Position numbers and translations under genes: made by a program
NCBI GenBank assembly: GCA_965228735.1
Contig: OZ245838.1
Location: 3,456,001-3,520,000, forward strand
DNA from: Planctomycetota bacterium
GTDB lineage: Bacteria > Planctomycetota > UBA1135 > UBA2386
DNA: 64,000 bases
Direction of reading: 5' to 3'
Shown: piece after piece, positions 26,933 through 53,845 of the stretch
Layout of the letters: the number at the start of each line of letters is the position of its first letter
Position numbering within the stretch: the stretch's first letter is position 1
Notes under the pieces: generated by a model
What the model was told of the DNA's origin: nothing
Databases searched by the model: none
The model's input: the letters and a program-made list of their open reading frames with translations, nothing else

Positions 26933-28414
26933 TCAGCGCCGCGGCCGTTGCTGCAGCAGGTAGAACAGCAGGTTGTTGGTGAACAGCGGATTGCTCGTCA
27001 GGCCGATGTGGTCGTCGGCGAGGAACGTCACGCTGTCCCAGTCGACCGGCGAATCGATGAAGCCCTGGCCCATGATCTTCATGTTGGCGAGCGCGCTGAA
27101 CCGCGGCACGGTGCCGTCGCCGAACTCGTAGACGTCGCCGGAGAAAAGCGGCCGCAGGCGGTCGCCGTCGCGCGCCATCCGAACCCGAGCGAGCGTCGGA
27201 ATCGTGTCCGAGGCGAACAACCGCATCTCGACCGGGCTCGGCGTCGGCGGCACGACGTCCAACGCGCGATGGAACCGCGCGGCGACGTCGAGGTTGCGCG
27301 CCAGCAGCCCGCGCGCGCGGTCTCGGCGCGCGGCCGGATCCGGCTCGTCCGGCATGAGCCACTCGAGGTATCGCGCGGAATCGGGATCGAGCAGCCCCCA
27401 CCCGTTGTCGTCCCAGGTCGCGACGTCGAAGAGATCCAGCGCGAGCGGCGCGCCGTTCTCGTCGACCACGAGCCCCATGCCGTTGCGCGGCAGCAACTCG
27501 TAGATCGAGGTCATCGTGCCGAGCAACGCGCGGTCGTAGTGCGGCAACAGTGTCGCGGGCTGGAACCCGTTCAACAGGTTGGCCAGCGACTCCATCGAAC
27601 CGAGGTTGGGCGTGCCGACCATCACGAGCCGGTCGACCTGTTCGGCGCCGGCCCAGGTCACCTCGGGTGCTGCGCCGGCGGCGGGCAGCGGCGCGTCGCC
27701 GTAGCGCAGGTAGTAGCGCGCGACGAGCCCGCCCATCGAGTGCGCGACGAGATCGAACTTCCAGTCGCTCGCGAGCCACGCCTCGATCTCGGCGGCCTCC
27801 TGCAGCGCCGCGGCGTCACCACGTTCGCGCAGCGTATCGACCCGCCCCTGCGCGGACTGGTTGATCTTCGCGCGCGTCGCCGTGAGGTAGTCGTGCAGCG
27901 CGAGCGCGTTGTCCGCGCAGTCACGCCGCCAGTCGTAGAAGAACGTCCAGCACGTGTAGTGGTCCTCGTTGTAGGCCGGAGTCCCCGGATCGAGGAGCAC
28001 CTTGTCGGTGAAGCCGCCGACGCCGAGCGAGCGCAGGATGTTGGCGTAGACGCTGACGTTGATGACGGTGAAGAACAGATCGAGCTCGATCGCGCCGAGC
28101 GGCCCGGACGGATAGACGTCGTAGTCGAGCTCGTCGAGCGCCGGCGTCATCGGCAGCGCGAGAGCGCGTGCGCCCGCCGGTGTCGCCGGGTCGATCGATT
28201 CGCCCGTGAACGCGCCCCAGACCGTCTTGCCCGTCGACCGCTGCTCGAGCCTGGAGCCGAGGATGCCGTGCATCACGATCACCGGGTTGCGAACGTAGGT
28301 GTGCGCCGCGGATTCGTAGATCTCCTGGATCGCTGGCTCGGCGTCGCGGAACGAGCTGCAGCCGCCGGCGACGACCAGCGGAACGAACGACAGGGACAGG
28401 ACGAGGCGCTTCAT
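26933..28414 (-). CDS. Lipoprotein lipase/acyltransferase (LCAT/PGAP1-like alpha/beta hydrolase)
   Basis: ATG 28414; lipobox AGGC; HGILGS, YDWRR, AHSMGG, GTPNLGS, GDGTVP and C-terminal His. Confidence 0.9.
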   Translation of the reverse strand: MKRLVLSLSFVPLVVAGGCSSFRDAEPAIQEIYESAAHTYVRNPVIVMHGILGSRLEQRSTGKTVWGAFTGESIDPATPAGARALALPMTPALDELDYDVYPSGPLGAIELDLFFTVINVSVYANILRSLGVGGFTDKVLLDPGTPAYNEDHYTCWTFFYDWRRDCADNALALHDYLTATRAKINQSAQGRVDTLRERGDAAALQEAAEIEAWLASDWKFDLVAHSMGGLVARYYLRYGDAPLPAAGAAPEVTWAGAEQVDRLVMVGTPNLGSMESLANLLNGFQPATLLPHYDRALLGTMTSIYELLPRNGMGLVVDENGAPLALDLFDVATWDDNGWGLLDPDSARYLEWLMPDEPDPAARRDRARGLLARNLDVAARFHRALDVVPPTPSPVEMRLFASDTIPTLARVRMARDGDRLRPLFSGDVYEFGDGTVPRFSALANMKIMGQGFIDSPVDWDSVTFLADDHIGLTSNPLFTNNLLFYLLQQRPRR

Positions 28415-28440
28415 CGGGCTGGAATGTAGCATTACGACCG

Positions 28441-29697
28441 ATGCTGACCGTGGTGCCCATTCTCCTGACTTCGGCCCTCGCGGTGCCCACGCCGCAGGGA
28501 CCGTCACAGGGACCGTCGCAGGCGAGCCCGGATCCACAGTTCGTCGCCTGGCGGGATCACATCGTGCCAACGGTCGCGGAGTGGCGCTGGCAGCAGATCG
28601 ACTGGCGGCCGACGCTCGGGGCCGGCCTGCGCGCCGCCGCGGCAGCCAGGAAGCCGCTGTTGCTCTGGCTCATGAACGGCCACCCGCTCGGCTGCACTTG
28701 AGGCAACGGAGTCCGGGACCGGCGGGTCTGGTCCGACGAACGACTGCAGGAGCTGGCCACGAACTTCGTGCCCGCGGCCGACGAGGTGTGGCGGCTGCAG
28801 CGCGACGACGAACCGGAGTGCCGCTGGTTCCGCGAAGCCGTGCGCGGTGACCGCTTGCCGAGCCGCGGCTCGATGCAGGGCACCTACGTGCTCACGCCGG
28901 GCGGCGAATGCCTCGGCCGGATCAACTCGGGTGATCCGGAGAAGGTCGCCAGCATGCTCACGGCGGCGCTGACGAAGTGGCGCGCGCGACCGGCGCCCGA
29001 CGATGCCGACGCTGCGGCACCACCGCCGGCCCCGGGTCATCGCTGGGAGCAGAGCTACCCCTCGGACGGTCTCGTGCTCGAACGCTTCGCGCGCGACGTC
29101 GGCGCGGCCCCCACCGAGGAACCGCGTCGCCCGGTGAATCGCGACGCCGTGTGGTTCAGTGCCGAGGAAGCGACCGGCTGGCTGCCCGGCGAGCCCGAGG
29201 TCGGGCAGAAGGGCAAGGTCGCGCCGATCGTCGTCCTGCGTCTCGCACGCACCGCGTTCGTCGACAACGTGCGCGGCCAGACGCTACCGTTCGCCGCCGC
29301 CGAGATCGATCGCGCCGATCTGCTCTACACGGTGCGCGCGGTGGACGACGAGCACGTCGCGTTCGAACTGCGCGGCACCACCCGGGCGGAGGCCGGGGGT
29401 CCGTGGCTCGGCGGCGAGTCCTACTGGCGACCCAAGCGCGAGTGGCCACGATCGCTCGCCACGGGCATGCGCGGTCACGCCATCTGGGATCGCACCGCGC
29501 GCCGGTTCGTCGCGTTCGAGCTCGTCGCGCTCGGCACGCGCCGCGGCCGCACGGCGTTCAACGGTCGCGCGCGCGAAGAGGCCGCGAGCATGCACCGCAT
29601 CGGGTTCGCGCTCCGACTCGCGCCGGCAGAGTTCCGCGTCGCACCGACGTTCGTGAACGTCTACGACGCGGACTGGGTCACGCACCCGGCGAAGTAG
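28441..29697 (+). CDS. Predicted selenoprotein (418 aa, Sec87 at TGA 28699-28701) with an N-terminal thioredoxin-like domain, C-T-U motif
   Basis: ORFs 28441-28701 and 28768-29697 are in the same frame, separated only by one TGA. Read-through gives KPLLLWLMNGHPLGCT-U-GNGVRDRRVWSDERLQELATNFVP; a SECIS-like hairpin follows. Confidence 0.85.
28711..28737 (+). promoter_or_regulatory. Putative bacterial SECIS element
   Basis: GTC-(CG bulge)-GGACCGG-[CGGGT]-CTGGTCC-GAC; the apical loop starts at +22 after UGA with G at loop position 2. Confidence 0.72.
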
Positions 29698-29734
29698 TCC
29701 AACGCCGGGTGGCACCCGCCAGGCATCGACCGCC

Positions 29735-30151
29735 TCAGCGGCCGAGCACCTGTTGGATCGCCTTGGTCACACCAGCCTCGGTCTGGTTGTGACCCGACTC
29801 CTTCCACAGCAACTTCCCCTCGGCGTCGGTAATCACCATCCCGTGGATGTTGAGCTCGTGCTTGGCGATCAACGCCTGCGACTCGTCGGTGTAGTGCTCG
29901 AGCACCTGGAACTTCATGGCATCACCGAACTGCGTTTCGAGCCCATTCACGATGGGCACCACTGCACCGCAGCGCGGTCAATTCTCCATGTTGATGTAGG
30001 TGAGGATCGGCATCGCGCCGGCCTTCGGCTTCTCGCCGGCCTCCGCGATGTTGGAACCGGCATCCGCCGGGTCGGACTTCGGCGTCTCGCTCGTGCAGCC
30101 GAATGTCACGGCACAGAGCGCGGTCAACGCCAGGATGAGGATGAGTCGCAT
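29735..30151 (-). CDS. Predicted selenoprotein: thioredoxin-like lipoprotein (138 aa) with a UxxC motif (Sec58 at TGA 29980-29978)
   Basis: ATG 30151 (MRLILILALTALCAVTFGC). The in-frame TGA gives ILTYINMEN-U-PRC-GAVVPIVNGLETQF...MVITDAEGKLLWKESG, a complete Trx fold. Confidence 0.92.
29929..29974 (-). promoter_or_regulatory. Putative bacterial SECIS element
   Basis: On the mRNA: upper stem GCCCAU-[CGUGA]-AUGGGC (29957-29941), lower stem GCUGCG/CGCAGU; the loop starts at +27 after UGA with G at loop position 2. Confidence 0.72.
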
Positions 30152-30340
30152 GGGAGAGACGATAGGTGGCGACGCGGGCGAACGCCAACCGTGGTCACCC
30201 TGCGACCGTCGAGCAATTCGACGATTCCGCGTTCGGACCGAGGGTTTGCTCAAGTGACTCCGGTTCCCTCCCGATAGTGCCAGGTGGCGGCGACAGCTGC
30301 CGGCGATCGGCGACGATCGTCAACACAGGGAGGGACCGTC

Positions 30341-31741
30341 ATGGTCGTTGAAGCAACCTGGGCGCGAACAGCGCATGGTGTGCTGTTCATCTTCGTGACC
30401 ACGCCCCTGCTCGCGCAGGGCACGTGGAGCTCGGACCCCACGGCCGGCGCGCCGCAGTCGCTCGCGCGACATGCGGCGGCGTATGACCTGCAGCGCCAGA
30501 TGATGGTGCTGTTCGGCGGCCACGACCAGCAATACCAGGTGCTGGCCTCGACGTGGGAGTTCGATGGCGTGACCTGGACGCCGCGCTTCTCGTTCGTCAC
30601 ACCCCCGGCCCGACAGGCCGCCGCGATGGTCTATGACGCGATCCGCGGCCGAATGCTCTTGTTCGGCGGCGCACCGACGACGCAGGTCAACGGTCCGCTC
30701 GACGACACGTGGGAGTACGACGGCAACACGTGGACGCAGCTCGCACCGGCGACCACCCCACCACCGCGATACTCGCACGCCATGTGCTATGACCTCGCGC
30801 AGGGCGTGACCGTCATGTTCGGCGGCCGCATGGCGAGCAACATGATCAGTGGTGACACGTGGTTGTGGGACGGTTCGAACTGGCAGCAGCAAGCCGGTCC
30901 GGGACCGTCCCCACGAACGCGGCACGCGATCGCCTACGATCTCAATCGCAACCGCAGCGTGCTCTTCGGCGGCTACGACGGCGGGACGACACTCGGGGAC
31001 ACCTGGGAGTGGAACGGCGCGAGCTGGAGCCAGCACGCGACGACCGCAGTCGTGGCACCACCCGCGCGCTCGGGACACGGCATGGCCGCCGACCTGTCAC
31101 GTTCGGTGATCGTCATGCACGGCGGCATGCCGGGCGGCACCGACACCTGGGAGTGGGATGGCACGACGTGGAGCCAGCACGGCTCGACGGCGACGCCCAA
31201 GACGGACCACTCGATCATCTACGACGCCCGACTGCAGCGCACGACGCTGTACGGCGGCATGCATCCGCTGCCGCCGATGGCGCTCGCATCGGAGACCGCG
31301 ACCTACGGGCAGCCAGTGCCCGGCACGTTCACGCCGCGCGGCGGCAGCTGCCCGGCGTCCTTTGGCACACCGCAGCTCGCCGCACCGACGACCGGGGTGA
31401 CGGGCCCCGTCATGGGCCAGTCCGCGAACGTGTTCGTCACGAGCACGTGGCTGCACACGTGGTTCGTGCTCGGCTGGTCCGAATCGTTCGACGGCACGAC
31501 CCCGCTGCCACTCAACCTCGCGGGCCACGGCATGCCGGGTTGCGAGCTGCAGGTCAGTCAGGACTCGATCACGAGCGTGCCGCCGCAGAACGGCGTCAGC
31601 ACGCTGACGATCCACGTGCCGTCGAACCCGTTCCTGGTGGGGCTGCGGTTCTACGTCCAGGGGTTCGTCCTCGACCCCGCGGCCAATCCGCGGGGCTTCG
31701 CGACGACGAATCGCCTCGCGGCATTCATCGGCCGCAACTGA
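30341..31741 (+). CDS. Secreted Kelch-like beta-propeller protein with a Cys-pair C-terminal domain
   Basis: GGAGG RBS before ATG 30341; six repeats of P.R..HAM.YD......LFGG....DTWEWDG..W. Confidence 0.88.
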   Translation: MVVEATWARTAHGVLFIFVTTPLLAQGTWSSDPTAGAPQSLARHAAAYDLQRQMMVLFGGHDQQYQVLASTWEFDGVTWTPRFSFVTPPARQAAAMVYDAIRGRMLLFGGAPTTQVNGPLDDTWEYDGNTWTQLAPATTPPPRYSHAMCYDLAQGVTVMFGGRMASNMISGDTWLWDGSNWQQQAGPGPSPRTRHAIAYDLNRNRSVLFGGYDGGTTLGDTWEWNGASWSQHATTAVVAPPARSGHGMAADLSRSVIVMHGGMPGGTDTWEWDGTTWSQHGSTATPKTDHSIIYDARLQRTTLYGGMHPLPPMALASETATYGQPVPGTFTPRGGSCPASFGTPQLAAPTTGVTGPVMGQSANVFVTSTWLHTWFVLGWSESFDGTTPLPLNLAGHGMPGCELQVSQDSITSVPPQNGVSTLTIHVPSNPFLVGLRFYVQGFVLDPAANPRGFATTNRLAAFIGRN

Positions 31742-51873: not shown

Positions 51874-53796
51874 TCATTCGGCGAGATACACCGGCCGGTC
51901 ATCGCGCCGGGCGTAGAGCTTCGCGAACGCCGGCAGCAGACTGCCGTCCTCGGCGACCAGAACGGCCGGCACGGCGCCCCCGCCATAGCCGCGGCTCCAT
52001 GCCGCGTGCACCCGCTCGCCGATCCGCCGCGCATCGGCCTGCGGCGCGAGGAAGTCGTAGCCCTCGAGTTCGCCTTCGGCGCCGAGCGTGCGCAACGAGC
52101 GCGCGGCGTTGAAGCGCACGACGTAGTAGGGATCGTCGAGCAACCGCGCGAGGTACGGCGCGAGCCAGTTGCTGCCGGACGCCCGCTGCGCGGGTTCCCA
52201 GCCAGCGCTCCACGCCGCGAGTACGCGCTGGCCGGCGTCACCCGTCAGCAGCCAACGTGCGCCGGCCGCGACCTCGCGCTGCTCCTCGTCGAGCTCGGGA
52301 GCCGCGACTCCCCACCGTTCCTGCAGGTGCCGCGCCGTCCAACCGAGCGGCTTGTCGAGGTGACACTGGTTGCACGCGTTGGGCCGCCCCGTGCGCAACT
52401 CGACAGCGACGTCGGGCGACGTGATCTCGTGGCTGCGTTCGGCCTTCATGAGCCCGAACGACGTGTGGCTCATGTGGCAGTTGTAGCAGTTGCTGCCCGT
52501 CGATCCGGCCTCGTGGTGCGTGTGTGCCGTCAGCGCGCCATCTTCCGCGAGCTCGCCGTGACACTGGGTGCACGCCGCGTTGCCGCGCATTCCCGGCTTC
52601 AGCTGGTCGTCACGCCACGCCGCCAGGTCGCCCTCGTCGGGGTGCAGTTCGTGACACGACGTGCAGTCGATCTGGCGTTCGGCGTCACCGTGGGTGTAGC
52701 ACGGCGAACTCACCATGCCGTTGTACTCGCGCCCCGACACCCGCACCTGACCGTCGGGCCAGAACGAGCTCTCGAAGAAGTGCGGGTTGTTCTGCAGCGT
52801 CCGCCGCAGTTCGGGCGCATCGCGCGTGGCCGCGGTGATGACGAGATTCGTCTGCCGCAGCTCCTCGCCGGGCCGGTAGCGCAACCCGTCCTCGCGCCAC
52901 GAGTCGAAGAACTCGTGCCGCAGGATGTTCACGGAGTGACACTGCCCGCAGACCTGCGCCGACCGCGCGCGGTTGAGCCGATCCGGATTGACGATCGTGT
53001 CGTCGCCGCCGTCCGTCAGCCACTGCGAGTAGCGTCTCGCGGGGTTCTTGTTGGCGGCGACGTGGTCCAGGCCAGGGCCGTGGCACGCCTCGCACGCGAT
53101 GCCGAGCTCGCTGACGTGCGTATCGCTGCGGTCGAGGTCGACGCGCGGCCGCACGTGCGTCGCGTGGCACATGTGACAGTTGCGATTCCACGCGCCCGGC
53201 TCGGGCGGATCGCGGAACTCCGGCGGCAACACGAACACGGCCGTGAGCGGCAGCCAAATGCGTTCTTCGAGCTTGTAGCACAGCGGCACGGGCGCGAGCT
53301 CGCGCTGGTTGCCCGTCGAGTACCAGAACACGTGGAAGTGATGGCTCCCCGTGAGCTGCTCGACCGGCCGCACGATGTGCCGCGGATCCCGACCCTTGCG
53401 ATGGAAGTCGACCCACAACCGGTCGCCCCGCCATTCGAAGACGACGGGCTCGCCGAACCAGTCGAGCTCGAGCCGATCGAACTCGACCTGGATCGCGGCG
53501 CGCGTCGCGACCTGCGTCATCGTGCGATGGAACGACCCGTGCCAGGTCGCGTGCTCGTGCGGATGGCACGATCGACAGTGCGCCGAGCCGACGTAGCCGT
53601 CGGCCGGCTCGATGAGCGGCCGCGCCCGCGTCGGCACGTCTCGGCGCGGCTCGTCGGTGAAGCTCAGGATCCCGACACTGATCACCATGCCCGTCGCGAG
53701 GACCGCGACGACGACCGCTCCGAGCGTGCGCGCCGCGCGCCACAGCGGCACGATCGCGAGCAGGCCGAGACAGATCGTGAGCAGGGCGGCGATCAC
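51874..53796 (-). CDS. Membrane-anchored octaheme c-type cytochrome (c554/c3-like) with a C-terminal HEAT-like segment
   Basis: Eight CxxCH motifs: CRSCH, CHMCH, CEACH, CGQCH, CTSCH, CTQCH, CYNCH, CNQCH; two N-terminal TM helices. Confidence 0.92.
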   Translation of the reverse strand: MIAALLTICLGLLAIVPLWRAARTLGAVVVAVLATGMVISVGILSFTDEPRRDVPTRARPLIEPADGYVGSAHCRSCHPHEHATWHGSFHRTMTQVATRAAIQVEFDRLELDWFGEPVVFEWRGDRLWVDFHRKGRDPRHIVRPVEQLTGSHHFHVFWYSTGNQRELAPVPLCYKLEERIWLPLTAVFVLPPEFRDPPEPGAWNRNCHMCHATHVRPRVDLDRSDTHVSELGIACEACHGPGLDHVAANKNPARRYSQWLTDGGDDTIVNPDRLNRARSAQVCGQCHSVNILRHEFFDSWREDGLRYRPGEELRQTNLVITAATRDAPELRRTLQNNPHFFESSFWPDGQVRVSGREYNGMVSSPCYTHGDAERQIDCTSCHELHPDEGDLAAWRDDQLKPGMRGNAACTQCHGELAEDGALTAHTHHEAGSTGSNCYNCHMSHTSFGLMKAERSHEITSPDVAVELRTGRPNACNQCHLDKPLGWTARHLQERWGVAAPELDEEQREVAAGARWLLTGDAGQRVLAAWSAGWEPAQRASGSNWLAPYLARLLDDPYYVVRFNAARSLRTLGAEGELEGYDFLAPQADARRIGERVHAAWSRGYGGGAVPAVLVAEDGSLLPAFAKLYARRDDRPVYLAE

Positions 53797-53845
53797 GGCA
53801 TCAACCTAGTCGAGACCCCGGCCGAGGCCGAACCGTTCAGCCAGA

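Follow-up and report, generated by a model that had tools for sequence, protein, structure and literature searches.

Sco proteins join a membrane-tethered, extracytoplasmic thioredoxin fold to a Cys pair and a conserved His, and in these respects they resemble the protein family described below. The family differs from Sco1/SenC (PF02630) in having two His and no Sco hairpin insertion, and membership was rejected on the basis of UxxC in place of CxxxC and the lack of a PF02630 match for the family gene. Thioredoxin-like proteins with a UxxC motif are the commonest kind of bacterial selenoprotein, which makes one more such gene ordinary, and a 2026 catalogue of 119 families contains many UxxC thioredoxin-like entries in the portion of its text that was available (PMC13188914). 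The bacterial Sec-thioredoxin (PF00085, GOS 'Trx-like 1') has in common with the family the fold, a UxxC that opens helix 1, and an in-gene SECIS element; in contrast to it, the family lacks W-x-G-P-C, the cis-Pro, and the first strand and helix, and has a predicted lipoprotein signal and two invariant His, with scores of 24-26 bits for NF047697, whose cut-off is 140. SaoT (NF040730), also a small thioredoxin-like domain with UxxC, is the model with the best E-values (26 of 28 members match at E ≤ 0.1). However, the family does not have the CPCC/CxUC forms, no sao operon was recognised, and SaoT, given as ~85 aa in all in the excerpted preprint, leaves no room for a signal and a linker (bioRxiv 2022.07.06.499078). 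The GOS 'Trx-like 3' or thiol-disulfide isomerase-like UxxC selenoprotein shares UxxC, a membrane-associated N-terminus, and the thioredoxin fold, whereas the cis-Pro (YTPTY) is retained, and the HG and GH signature of the family is absent, in its two supplement sequences (PMC2398784). Peroxiredoxins (PF00578) likewise have the cis-Pro replaced by a residue that is polar or cationic, Arg in their case according to the sections seen of PMC2757866, and His in the family; unlike them, the family lacks PxxxTxxC/U and the peroxiredoxin insertions and keeps UxxC. The nearest relatives found with a cis-Pro are lipoproteins of the CxPC...IPT type (P0044, P0045, L032, and L088), with which the family shares the lipobox, the linker, and a D-x-x-G-K-x-L-W hairpin. 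These proteins retain the cis-Pro, have neither His, and separate from the family in an 86-row tree (79 family rows versus 7 cis-Pro relatives; 100/96 support, from few columns and with the bootstrap not settled).

Compared with Pfam and NCBIfam, the query falls into no Pfam family and gives a weak TrxA match alone, and none of the NCBIfam release 20 cut-offs is reached by the query or by the 12 Sec members and 9 Cys-form proteins that were scored. Candidate assignments that were rejected include canonical TrxA (NF047697 at most 27.5 of 140 bits; TIGR01068 at most 23.7 of 96.8), the TrxA/TlpA-CcmG-ResA group (cis-Pro before the third core strand absent, His103-Gly104 present in 61/61 Sec members), SaoT (best member 33 bits versus a cut-off of 65, the query without a match), and TsoX (NF045809; best 24 bits versus a cut-off of 52, HSGNPxU motif absent). 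The NF045500 (GOS_C) profile has no match in the genome, and none in the controls either.

The locus and its reading frame

The window analysed here is a stretch of 64,000 nucleotides from a planctomycete genome of 7.19 Mb and 69% GC (assembly GCA_965228735.1, contig OZ245838.1), and all coordinates without a contig label refer to it. The gene and its two active-site positions are as follows.

29735..30151, minus strand: gene for a predicted UxxC thioredoxin-fold lipoprotein, 138 aa with TGA read as Sec (sequence and homologs)
29978..29980, minus strand: putative Sec codon UGA, residue 58, opening UPRC (TGA in 61 of 65 distinct domain sequences, a Cys codon in the other four)
29969..29971, minus strand: Cys61, the predicted resolving cysteine (kept in 61 of 61 Sec members)

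From the start ATG at 30151, the frame runs through 57 codons to a TGA at 29980-29978 and then through 80 more codons to the stop TGA at 29737-29735. The codons ATG GAG AAT TGA CCG CGC TGC give M-E-N-U58-P-R-C61, and the 138-aa product has, in order, TFG-C19, ILTYINMEN-U58-PR-C61, and NIHG at 101-104. The frame, the coordinates, and all of these motifs agree with the initial annotation of this DNA.

The in-frame TGA is not an assembly error. Positions 28400-30300 show 0 differences in contigs of three other public runs (which may themselves be the source of this DNA), and positions 29298-30076 show 0 differences in a contig of a fourth run. Database records hold a split gene, with a 57-aa N-terminal piece (P0005) and C-terminal pieces of 70-80 aa. 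Since database entries divide these genes at the UGA, word-index protein searches returned just 1 and 7 proteins, mostly fragments. Searched without a profile, 1.84 billion representatives yielded 45 matches: split halves, misreads with W, Cys forms of full length, and a small number of ordinary thioredoxins.

Predicted selenocysteine at residue 58

The initial annotation had proposed a selenoprotein, and conservation of the TGA, Cys orthologs, a SECIS element, and the Sec machinery now bear this out: residue 58 is almost certainly selenocysteine, a prediction made from comparative sequence data. The genome carries SelA, SelB, SelD (with 1 in-frame TGA), and tRNA-Sec, all over the curated cut-offs. 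On the same genome, selA is directly followed by the Sec-containing selD (SG-U-AAK; G000:C1:121367-123694, plus strand).

A domain search of 301 genomes of the class found matches in 39 genomes, and all 22 of the non-self class matches at E<1e-12 contain one TGA each, always in the first position of UxxC. When a 28-row profile was run against 401 genomes of the phylum, 43 of its 47 matches contained one TGA and 4 did not. Thirty of these 47 loci were read, yielding 28 UxxC and 2 CxxC forms; the remaining two TGA-less matches are a canonical cis-Pro thioredoxin and a protein without both cysteines. Of the 42 genomes that carry the TGA form, 41 have SelA, versus 288 of the 401 in the phylum sample (a comparison by eye amongst relatives that are not independent), and the 42nd genome, without a SelA match, has SelB over the cut-off. 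Homologs span both halves of the gene, and the aligned family members have Sec or Cys at position 58. The CxxC homologs anticipated by the initial annotation do exist, with the codon TGT in L060 and TGC in L062, as CFLC lipoproteins on three metagenome contigs read with table 11 (L104, L106, and L107), and amongst the database proteins.

It could be argued instead that the TGA is a true stop (through a pseudogene, a split gene, or a sequencing error) or is read as Trp. TGA is indeed the main stop of this genome (889 of 1497 long ORFs), the two halves are stored as separate database proteins, and W stands at this codon in P0013 and P0043. The prevalence of TGA as a stop also excludes its general reassignment, however, and the retention of TGA at one column throughout the phylum, the alignment of Cys in orthologs with the TGA, the complete Sec machinery, the identical contigs from other runs, and a SECIS element under synonymous-site selection (see below) all speak against a stop or Trp. 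Such a reading has a negligible chance of being correct and may be considered effectively refuted by the sequence comparisons.

The SECIS hairpin

Downstream of the UGA and within the coding sequence lies a candidate SECIS element.

29941..29957, minus strand: predicted SECIS upper stem-loop GCCCAU-CGUGA-AUGGGC (consensus model and covariation, 61 genes)

The hairpin consists of a 6-bp stem and a 5-nt loop, CGUGA, with G in second position; the loop starts 26 nt after the UGA, and the folding energy is -9.5 kcal/mol. The bSECIS model, as set out in the section of PMC13188914 that was available, calls for a loop of 3-9 nt, a stem of 4-16 bp, G in loop positions 1-2, a spacing of 16-37 nt, and an MFE ≤ -7.5, and the hairpin satisfies all of these constraints. 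In the selD hairpin of this genome, the loop lies equally far from the UGA and again has G in second position, and the family hairpin is missing from the two Cys-form genes that were checked.

Covariation was first scored in 28 genes, where 85.7% of cells pair, changes on both sides occur at 5 of the 6 pairs, and alignments slid by 1-3 columns pair in 12-49%. The larger set derives from the parsed loci L005-L088 (84 loci, of which 83 have the motif, representing 65 distinct domains and 61 TGA genes; the 4 Cys forms were left out of the counts). Amongst these 61 genes, the top pairs 27-37, 28-36, and 29-35 form in 61, 61, and 60, respectively, and loop positions 2-3 are GU in 60. Position 36, the synonymous third base of a codon, is U in all 32 genes that have A28 and C in 27 of the 28 that have G28; elsewhere in the same genes, NAT makes up 64 of 524 comparable codons, in contrast to the 32/32 for U36 with A28. 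All three top pairs are found together in 60/61 genes, versus 12.0±2.8 (maximum 22) in 1000 synonymous recodings. The lower three stem pairs are weaker (34-44 of 61 genes), and the RNAalifold consensus of 28 sequences keeps the top three pairs alone (-0.53 kcal/mol), with a variable lower stem.

Distribution of the family

The sequence comparisons delineate a family of predicted lipoproteins spread across the planctomycetes, found in 46 of the 401 sampled genomes of the phylum and mostly in Sec form; the closest loci are mostly Planctomycetota. Within the tree, Cys forms are interspersed among Sec forms, and 7 label changes are needed, at least 3 of which are forced by well-supported branches. 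No match was found on plasmids or in phages, and no longer, fused forms were found among 7989 candidates (weak evidence). Two TGA-bearing family copies lie ~3 kb apart on one contig (G008:C10:166153-166530 and 169411-169743, plus strand). A family gene in a record assigned to Luminiphilus (L077) has planctomycete ileS/pnp synteny and probably reflects a mis-binned contig, not transfer.

Protein architecture

The product can be divided into three predicted parts, and the domain contains two further conserved sites.

30095..30151, minus strand: lipoprotein-type signal peptide, residues 1-19, TFG-C19, with the predicted lipidated Cys at 30097-30095 (sequence, simple rule)
30011..30094, minus strand: putative flexible linker, residues 20-47 (low pLDDT, variable length among members)
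29738..30010, minus strand: compact predicted thioredoxin domain, residues 48-138, beta-alpha-beta-alpha-beta-beta-alpha (AF2, Foldseek, VIA)
29840..29845, minus strand: His103-Gly104, in the register of the thioredoxin cis-Pro (61/61 Sec members)
29789..29794, minus strand: Gly120-His121, aligned to the V-G-A loop that follows the last strand in thioredoxins (His121 in 61/61, Gly120 in 58/61)

The lipoprotein signal with lipobox Cys19, the linker, and the thioredoxin fold had each been proposed from the letters of this gene, and all three predictions hold up in the wider comparison. A lipobox-like Cys follows a hydrophobic stretch in 56 of the 61 Sec members (by a home-made rule, not SignalP), and the distance from this Cys to Sec varies from 18 to 96 residues among members. 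AlphaFold (AF2) gives a pLDDT of ~60 for residues 1-40 and of 96.2 for the 91-aa domain. The predicted fold is that of a thioredoxin, a core of four strands and three helices in which UxxC opens the first helix: the best Foldseek match is 2e0q (TM 0.80), VIA aligns 86 residues to 7q3j (Z 13.6, rmsd 1.7), the 22 sequences matched in the PDB by a sequence profile are thioredoxins, and an ESM Atlas look-up with a Cys ortholog leads to generic thioredoxin clusters alone (0.90-0.94).

Loss of the cis-proline and a two-histidine signature

The initial annotation had remarked that NIHG is atypical for the cis-Pro site. It is, although not as an oddity of one gene, since His103-Gly104 together with His121 is invariant and forms a signature of the family. 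Besides Sec58, only Cys61, His103, Gly104, and His121 are invariant in 61/61 members, whose identity to the query ranges from 19 to 53%, and part of the His invariance reflects ascertainment because members were found with His-bearing queries. Neither column of His103-Gly104 contains a Pro among the 61 Sec members. Counting from the beta-hairpin, Gly stands at +9 of His103 in 40/61 and Asp in 17/61, and Gly stands at +9 of the cis-Pro in 4 of the 4 canonical relatives scored; in a profile alignment to solved thioredoxins, His103 corresponds to the residue before the cis-Pro and Gly104 to the Pro. The Cys-to-His spacing is 42 in 32/61 (range 40-46), versus 43 from Cys to Pro. Under either register, the alignments indicate that the cis-Pro is lost and place a His in the loop beside the predicted nucleophile. 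The second His, His121, is matched to Ala in the V-G-A loop of thioredoxins, which borders the active site.

Cys-form members add some variation to this picture. His103 is present in 13 of 14 Cys-form database proteins, which were picked by eye for the signature, and is replaced by Lys in the other (P0025); Cys-form L062 has Lys at position 103 as well. One Cys-form subgroup carries further His residues (DYH, GHHG). Locus L087 (G318:C43:8360-8686, minus strand) keeps the lipobox and NHG and has lost both cysteines and His121. The retention of NHG without both cysteines means that His103-Gly104 may be partly structural.

As the main alternative to redox chemistry, though a less likely one, Sec58, Cys61, His103, and His121 could be viewed as a site for Cu, Zn, Ni, or Hg in a Sco-like periplasmic chaperone, scavenger, or sensor that would deliver metal on its flexible tether. 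These are exactly the four invariant metal-capable side chains of the domain (61/61), and the Cys-form subgroup has its further His as well. Sco itself binds copper with two Cys and a His near the loop at the cis-Pro position. The loss of the cis-Pro is also relevant, since excerpts of two sources report that the cis-Pro prevents metal binding by CxxC (PMC2757866, PMC6210436) and that the P75S/T/A variants of human TRX1 allow a [2Fe-2S] cluster (Su et al. 2007, via the same two sources). A precedent may be found in SaoT, for which the excerpted preprint proposes a shift to metal binding (bioRxiv 2022.07.06.499078). On the other hand, two Cys-form members have Lys for His103, the best fold matches are ordinary thioredoxins, and inspection of the recurring neighbour clusters by eye revealed no gene for a metal transporter, a cytochrome oxidase, or a Sco-type protein. 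The second Cys of a thioredoxin fold is normally buried, which also counts against a metal site. Additionally, the genome has a separate SCO1-SenC gene, its only PF02630 match, which lies at another locus and adjoins an oxidase-subunit-like ORF.

A tethered Sec oxidoreductase as the leading interpretation

The leading interpretation is that of a tethered extracytoplasmic Sec oxidoreductase, and the chance that its whole mechanism is right, including a His103 that stabilises the selenolate as Arg does in peroxiredoxins, appears roughly even. In this mechanism, SelB acting on the SECIS element would insert Sec58, and the protein would be exported, lipidated at Cys19, and left to swing on a linker of variable length. 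The Sec58 selenolate would then attack an oxidised sulfur or oxygen substrate, Cys61 would resolve the intermediate to a selenenylsulfide, His103, at the position of the thiolate-activating Arg of peroxiredoxins, would stabilise the selenolate or the leaving group, and His121 would serve as a second polar or acid-base partner. Re-reduction might proceed through the DsbD-type membrane protein of the genome, itself apparently UxxC: the frame of the DsbD_TM gene runs on as NFTGFN-TGA-GSC. This DsbD-type gene (G000:C1:4263914-4264540, minus strand, and downstream) is likely to encode a Sec thiol:disulfide interchange protein, and its best-folding hairpin is without the loop G.

A redox catalyst is suggested by the N-terminal Sec of UxxC, the closeness of the His-bearing loop to the reactive Cys, and the His-to-Lys variants. 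The available parts of two sources state that the Arg at the cis-Pro position of peroxiredoxins lowers the pKa of the cysteine (PMC2757866), that the residue before the cis-Pro position lies within ~4 Å of the reactive Cys, and that the cis-Pro loop controls redox properties (both PMC2665069). Lys at position 103 in two Cys-form members fits a cationic or hydrogen-bonding role better than that of a metal ligand. Unfolded polypeptides are bound by the cis-Pro loop, and since this loop is lost, a small oxidant or a single dedicated partner is a likelier substrate than protein disulfides in general. Among the points that weigh against this mechanism, a His pair predicted beside Sec and Cys without a cis-Pro is also metal-site-like, and the cis-Pro register of His103 is not unique in the alignments.

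The invariant His pair beside Sec could also be taken to indicate His catalysis on a non-protein substrate, as in a reductive dehalogenase or a hypohalite detoxifier resembling the Sec/His deiodinases. Deiodinases use Sec and His, and coral-type habitats are rich in halogenated compounds; the identical gene occurs in one run labelled as a coral metagenome. Given that no PF00837 (deiodinase) match is listed for any of the 28 members and that the family spans many planctomycete families, this idea is improbable and amounts to speculation.

Genomic context

The gene stands by itself on its strand, flanked on one side by a Kelch-repeat gene and on the other by a convergent ORF, a second candidate selenoprotein gene.

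28441..29697, plus strand: convergent neighbour, candidate selenoprotein of 418 aa with GHPLGCTU, TGA at 28699-28701 (sequence, homologs)

This neighbour has a signal-like N-terminus, GHPLGCT-U87, and a SECIS-like hairpin with the loop CGGGU. It belongs to no NCBIfam family and gives a faint Thioredoxin_7 match alone. Its homologs occur in 30 of 61 relatives, with one TGA in 46 of 47 matches and four copies in this genome, and it may represent another uncatalogued family. The adjacency of the two candidate selenoprotein genes recurs only in a same-genus genome, and any functional link between them is hypothetical. Neither a sigma-70 promoter nor an intrinsic terminator was matched in 28300-30500. 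Among the sequencing runs listed as containing the gene, none is of RNA, which carries no information on expression.

Amongst the family loci, clusters of neighbours within 1.5 or 6 kb flanks include ileS (17 loci), rpsO/pnp (8-10), sirtuin-like (7), AhpD-like (5), and FG-GAP-like genes (5); all names except AhpD were assigned by eye, and several loci represent one genome twice. Because the synteny is limited to clades and the neighbours are housekeeping genes, no function can be derived from operons, and because the neighbourhood is not conserved, it indicates no substrate or partner. The AhpD-like genes lie near the family gene in L057, L066, L069, L073, and L074, and AhpD-like proteins are often selenoproteins.

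The initial annotation had suggested a possible role in disulfide or cytochrome c maturation, prompted by the many c-type cytochromes in this genome. Their abundance is roughly right for the genome, in which a crude filter finds 82 CxxCH ORFs, 14 of them with 3 or more motifs. Within the window, an ORF at 51877-53805 (minus strand) has 8 CxxCH motifs and is likely a multiheme cytochrome. A CcmG/ResA-like reductase serving cytochrome c maturation, or else a general periplasmic disulfide reductase or isomerase, would suit a lipoprotein thioredoxin with UxxC in a genome that has CcsA-type and DsbD-type genes as well as these CxxCH ORFs. Such a role is nonetheless improbable, and the suggestion of cytochrome c maturation found no support. 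No ccm/ccs, dsbD, or cytochrome gene could be recognised by eye among the recurring neighbour clusters, no linkage to biogenesis genes was recognised, and the CcsA-type gene is ~2.7 Mb away. The 91-aa domain has an uninterrupted thioredoxin topology without the TlpA insertion, and it lacks the cis-Pro that, in the sections available of PMC2757866, is common to CMPs and thioredoxins. Moreover, the genome already encodes nine conventional W-[C/U]-G-P-C proteins, which include cis-Pro thioredoxin/TlpA proteins; several are TlpA-like and two contain Sec. TlpA/redoxin-like ORFs with WGDW-U-GPC near G000:C1 6546690 (plus strand) and 3714233 (minus strand) are likely further selenoproteins of a known kind. 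Explanations beyond the oxidoreductase, metal-site, cytochrome c, dehalogenase, and true-stop readings have, in our estimation, a very small chance of being correct.

Novelty and significance

The two-His Sec thioredoxin-like lipoprotein family is seemingly uncatalogued, judging from comparisons of sequences and published descriptions. In the accessible part of the 2026 catalogue (PMC13188914), no entry is described with a two-His signature, a comparison that goes by description and in which a number of the entries are broad bins from Pfam/CDD. Neither 'planctomyc' nor 'lipoprotein' occurs in the text of the catalogue. A motif look-up (HGMV, HGLV, HGIV, HGVV, and ESGH), which is not a homology search, in the portion used of GOS supplement 3 (PMC2398784) gave 15 matches, none of the family. 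No such family is named in the parts covered of deep-Sep (PMC12013277), the Sargasso study (PMC1088965), and the Sao preprint (bioRxiv 2022.07.06.499078). The literature search found no paper on the family, with Haft & Tolstoy 2025, Deng et al. 2026, and the supplements of the Sao preprint, any of which could hold it, lying outside its scope.

The active-site surroundings predicted for this family differ in a fixed way from those of thioredoxins, peroxiredoxins, and Sco, with a His at the cis-Pro site and another at position 121. At 91 residues, and with Sec, Cys, and His-to-Lys variants that occur naturally, the domain would be an easy system for studying what replaces the cis-proline, and for asking whether selenium serves extracytoplasmic redox chemistry or a metal site. 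If the four side chains did bind a metal, the protein would be a selenium-based counterpart of the Sco chaperones, trafficking copper or another metal, and would put to a natural test the rule by which the cis-proline keeps metals off CxxC. With SelA in 288 of the 401 phylum genomes, the use of Sec appears to be very common amongst these bacteria and their selenoproteome is likely to be under-annotated, an under-annotation that is also suggested by the several further selenoprotein candidates in this planctomycete genome.
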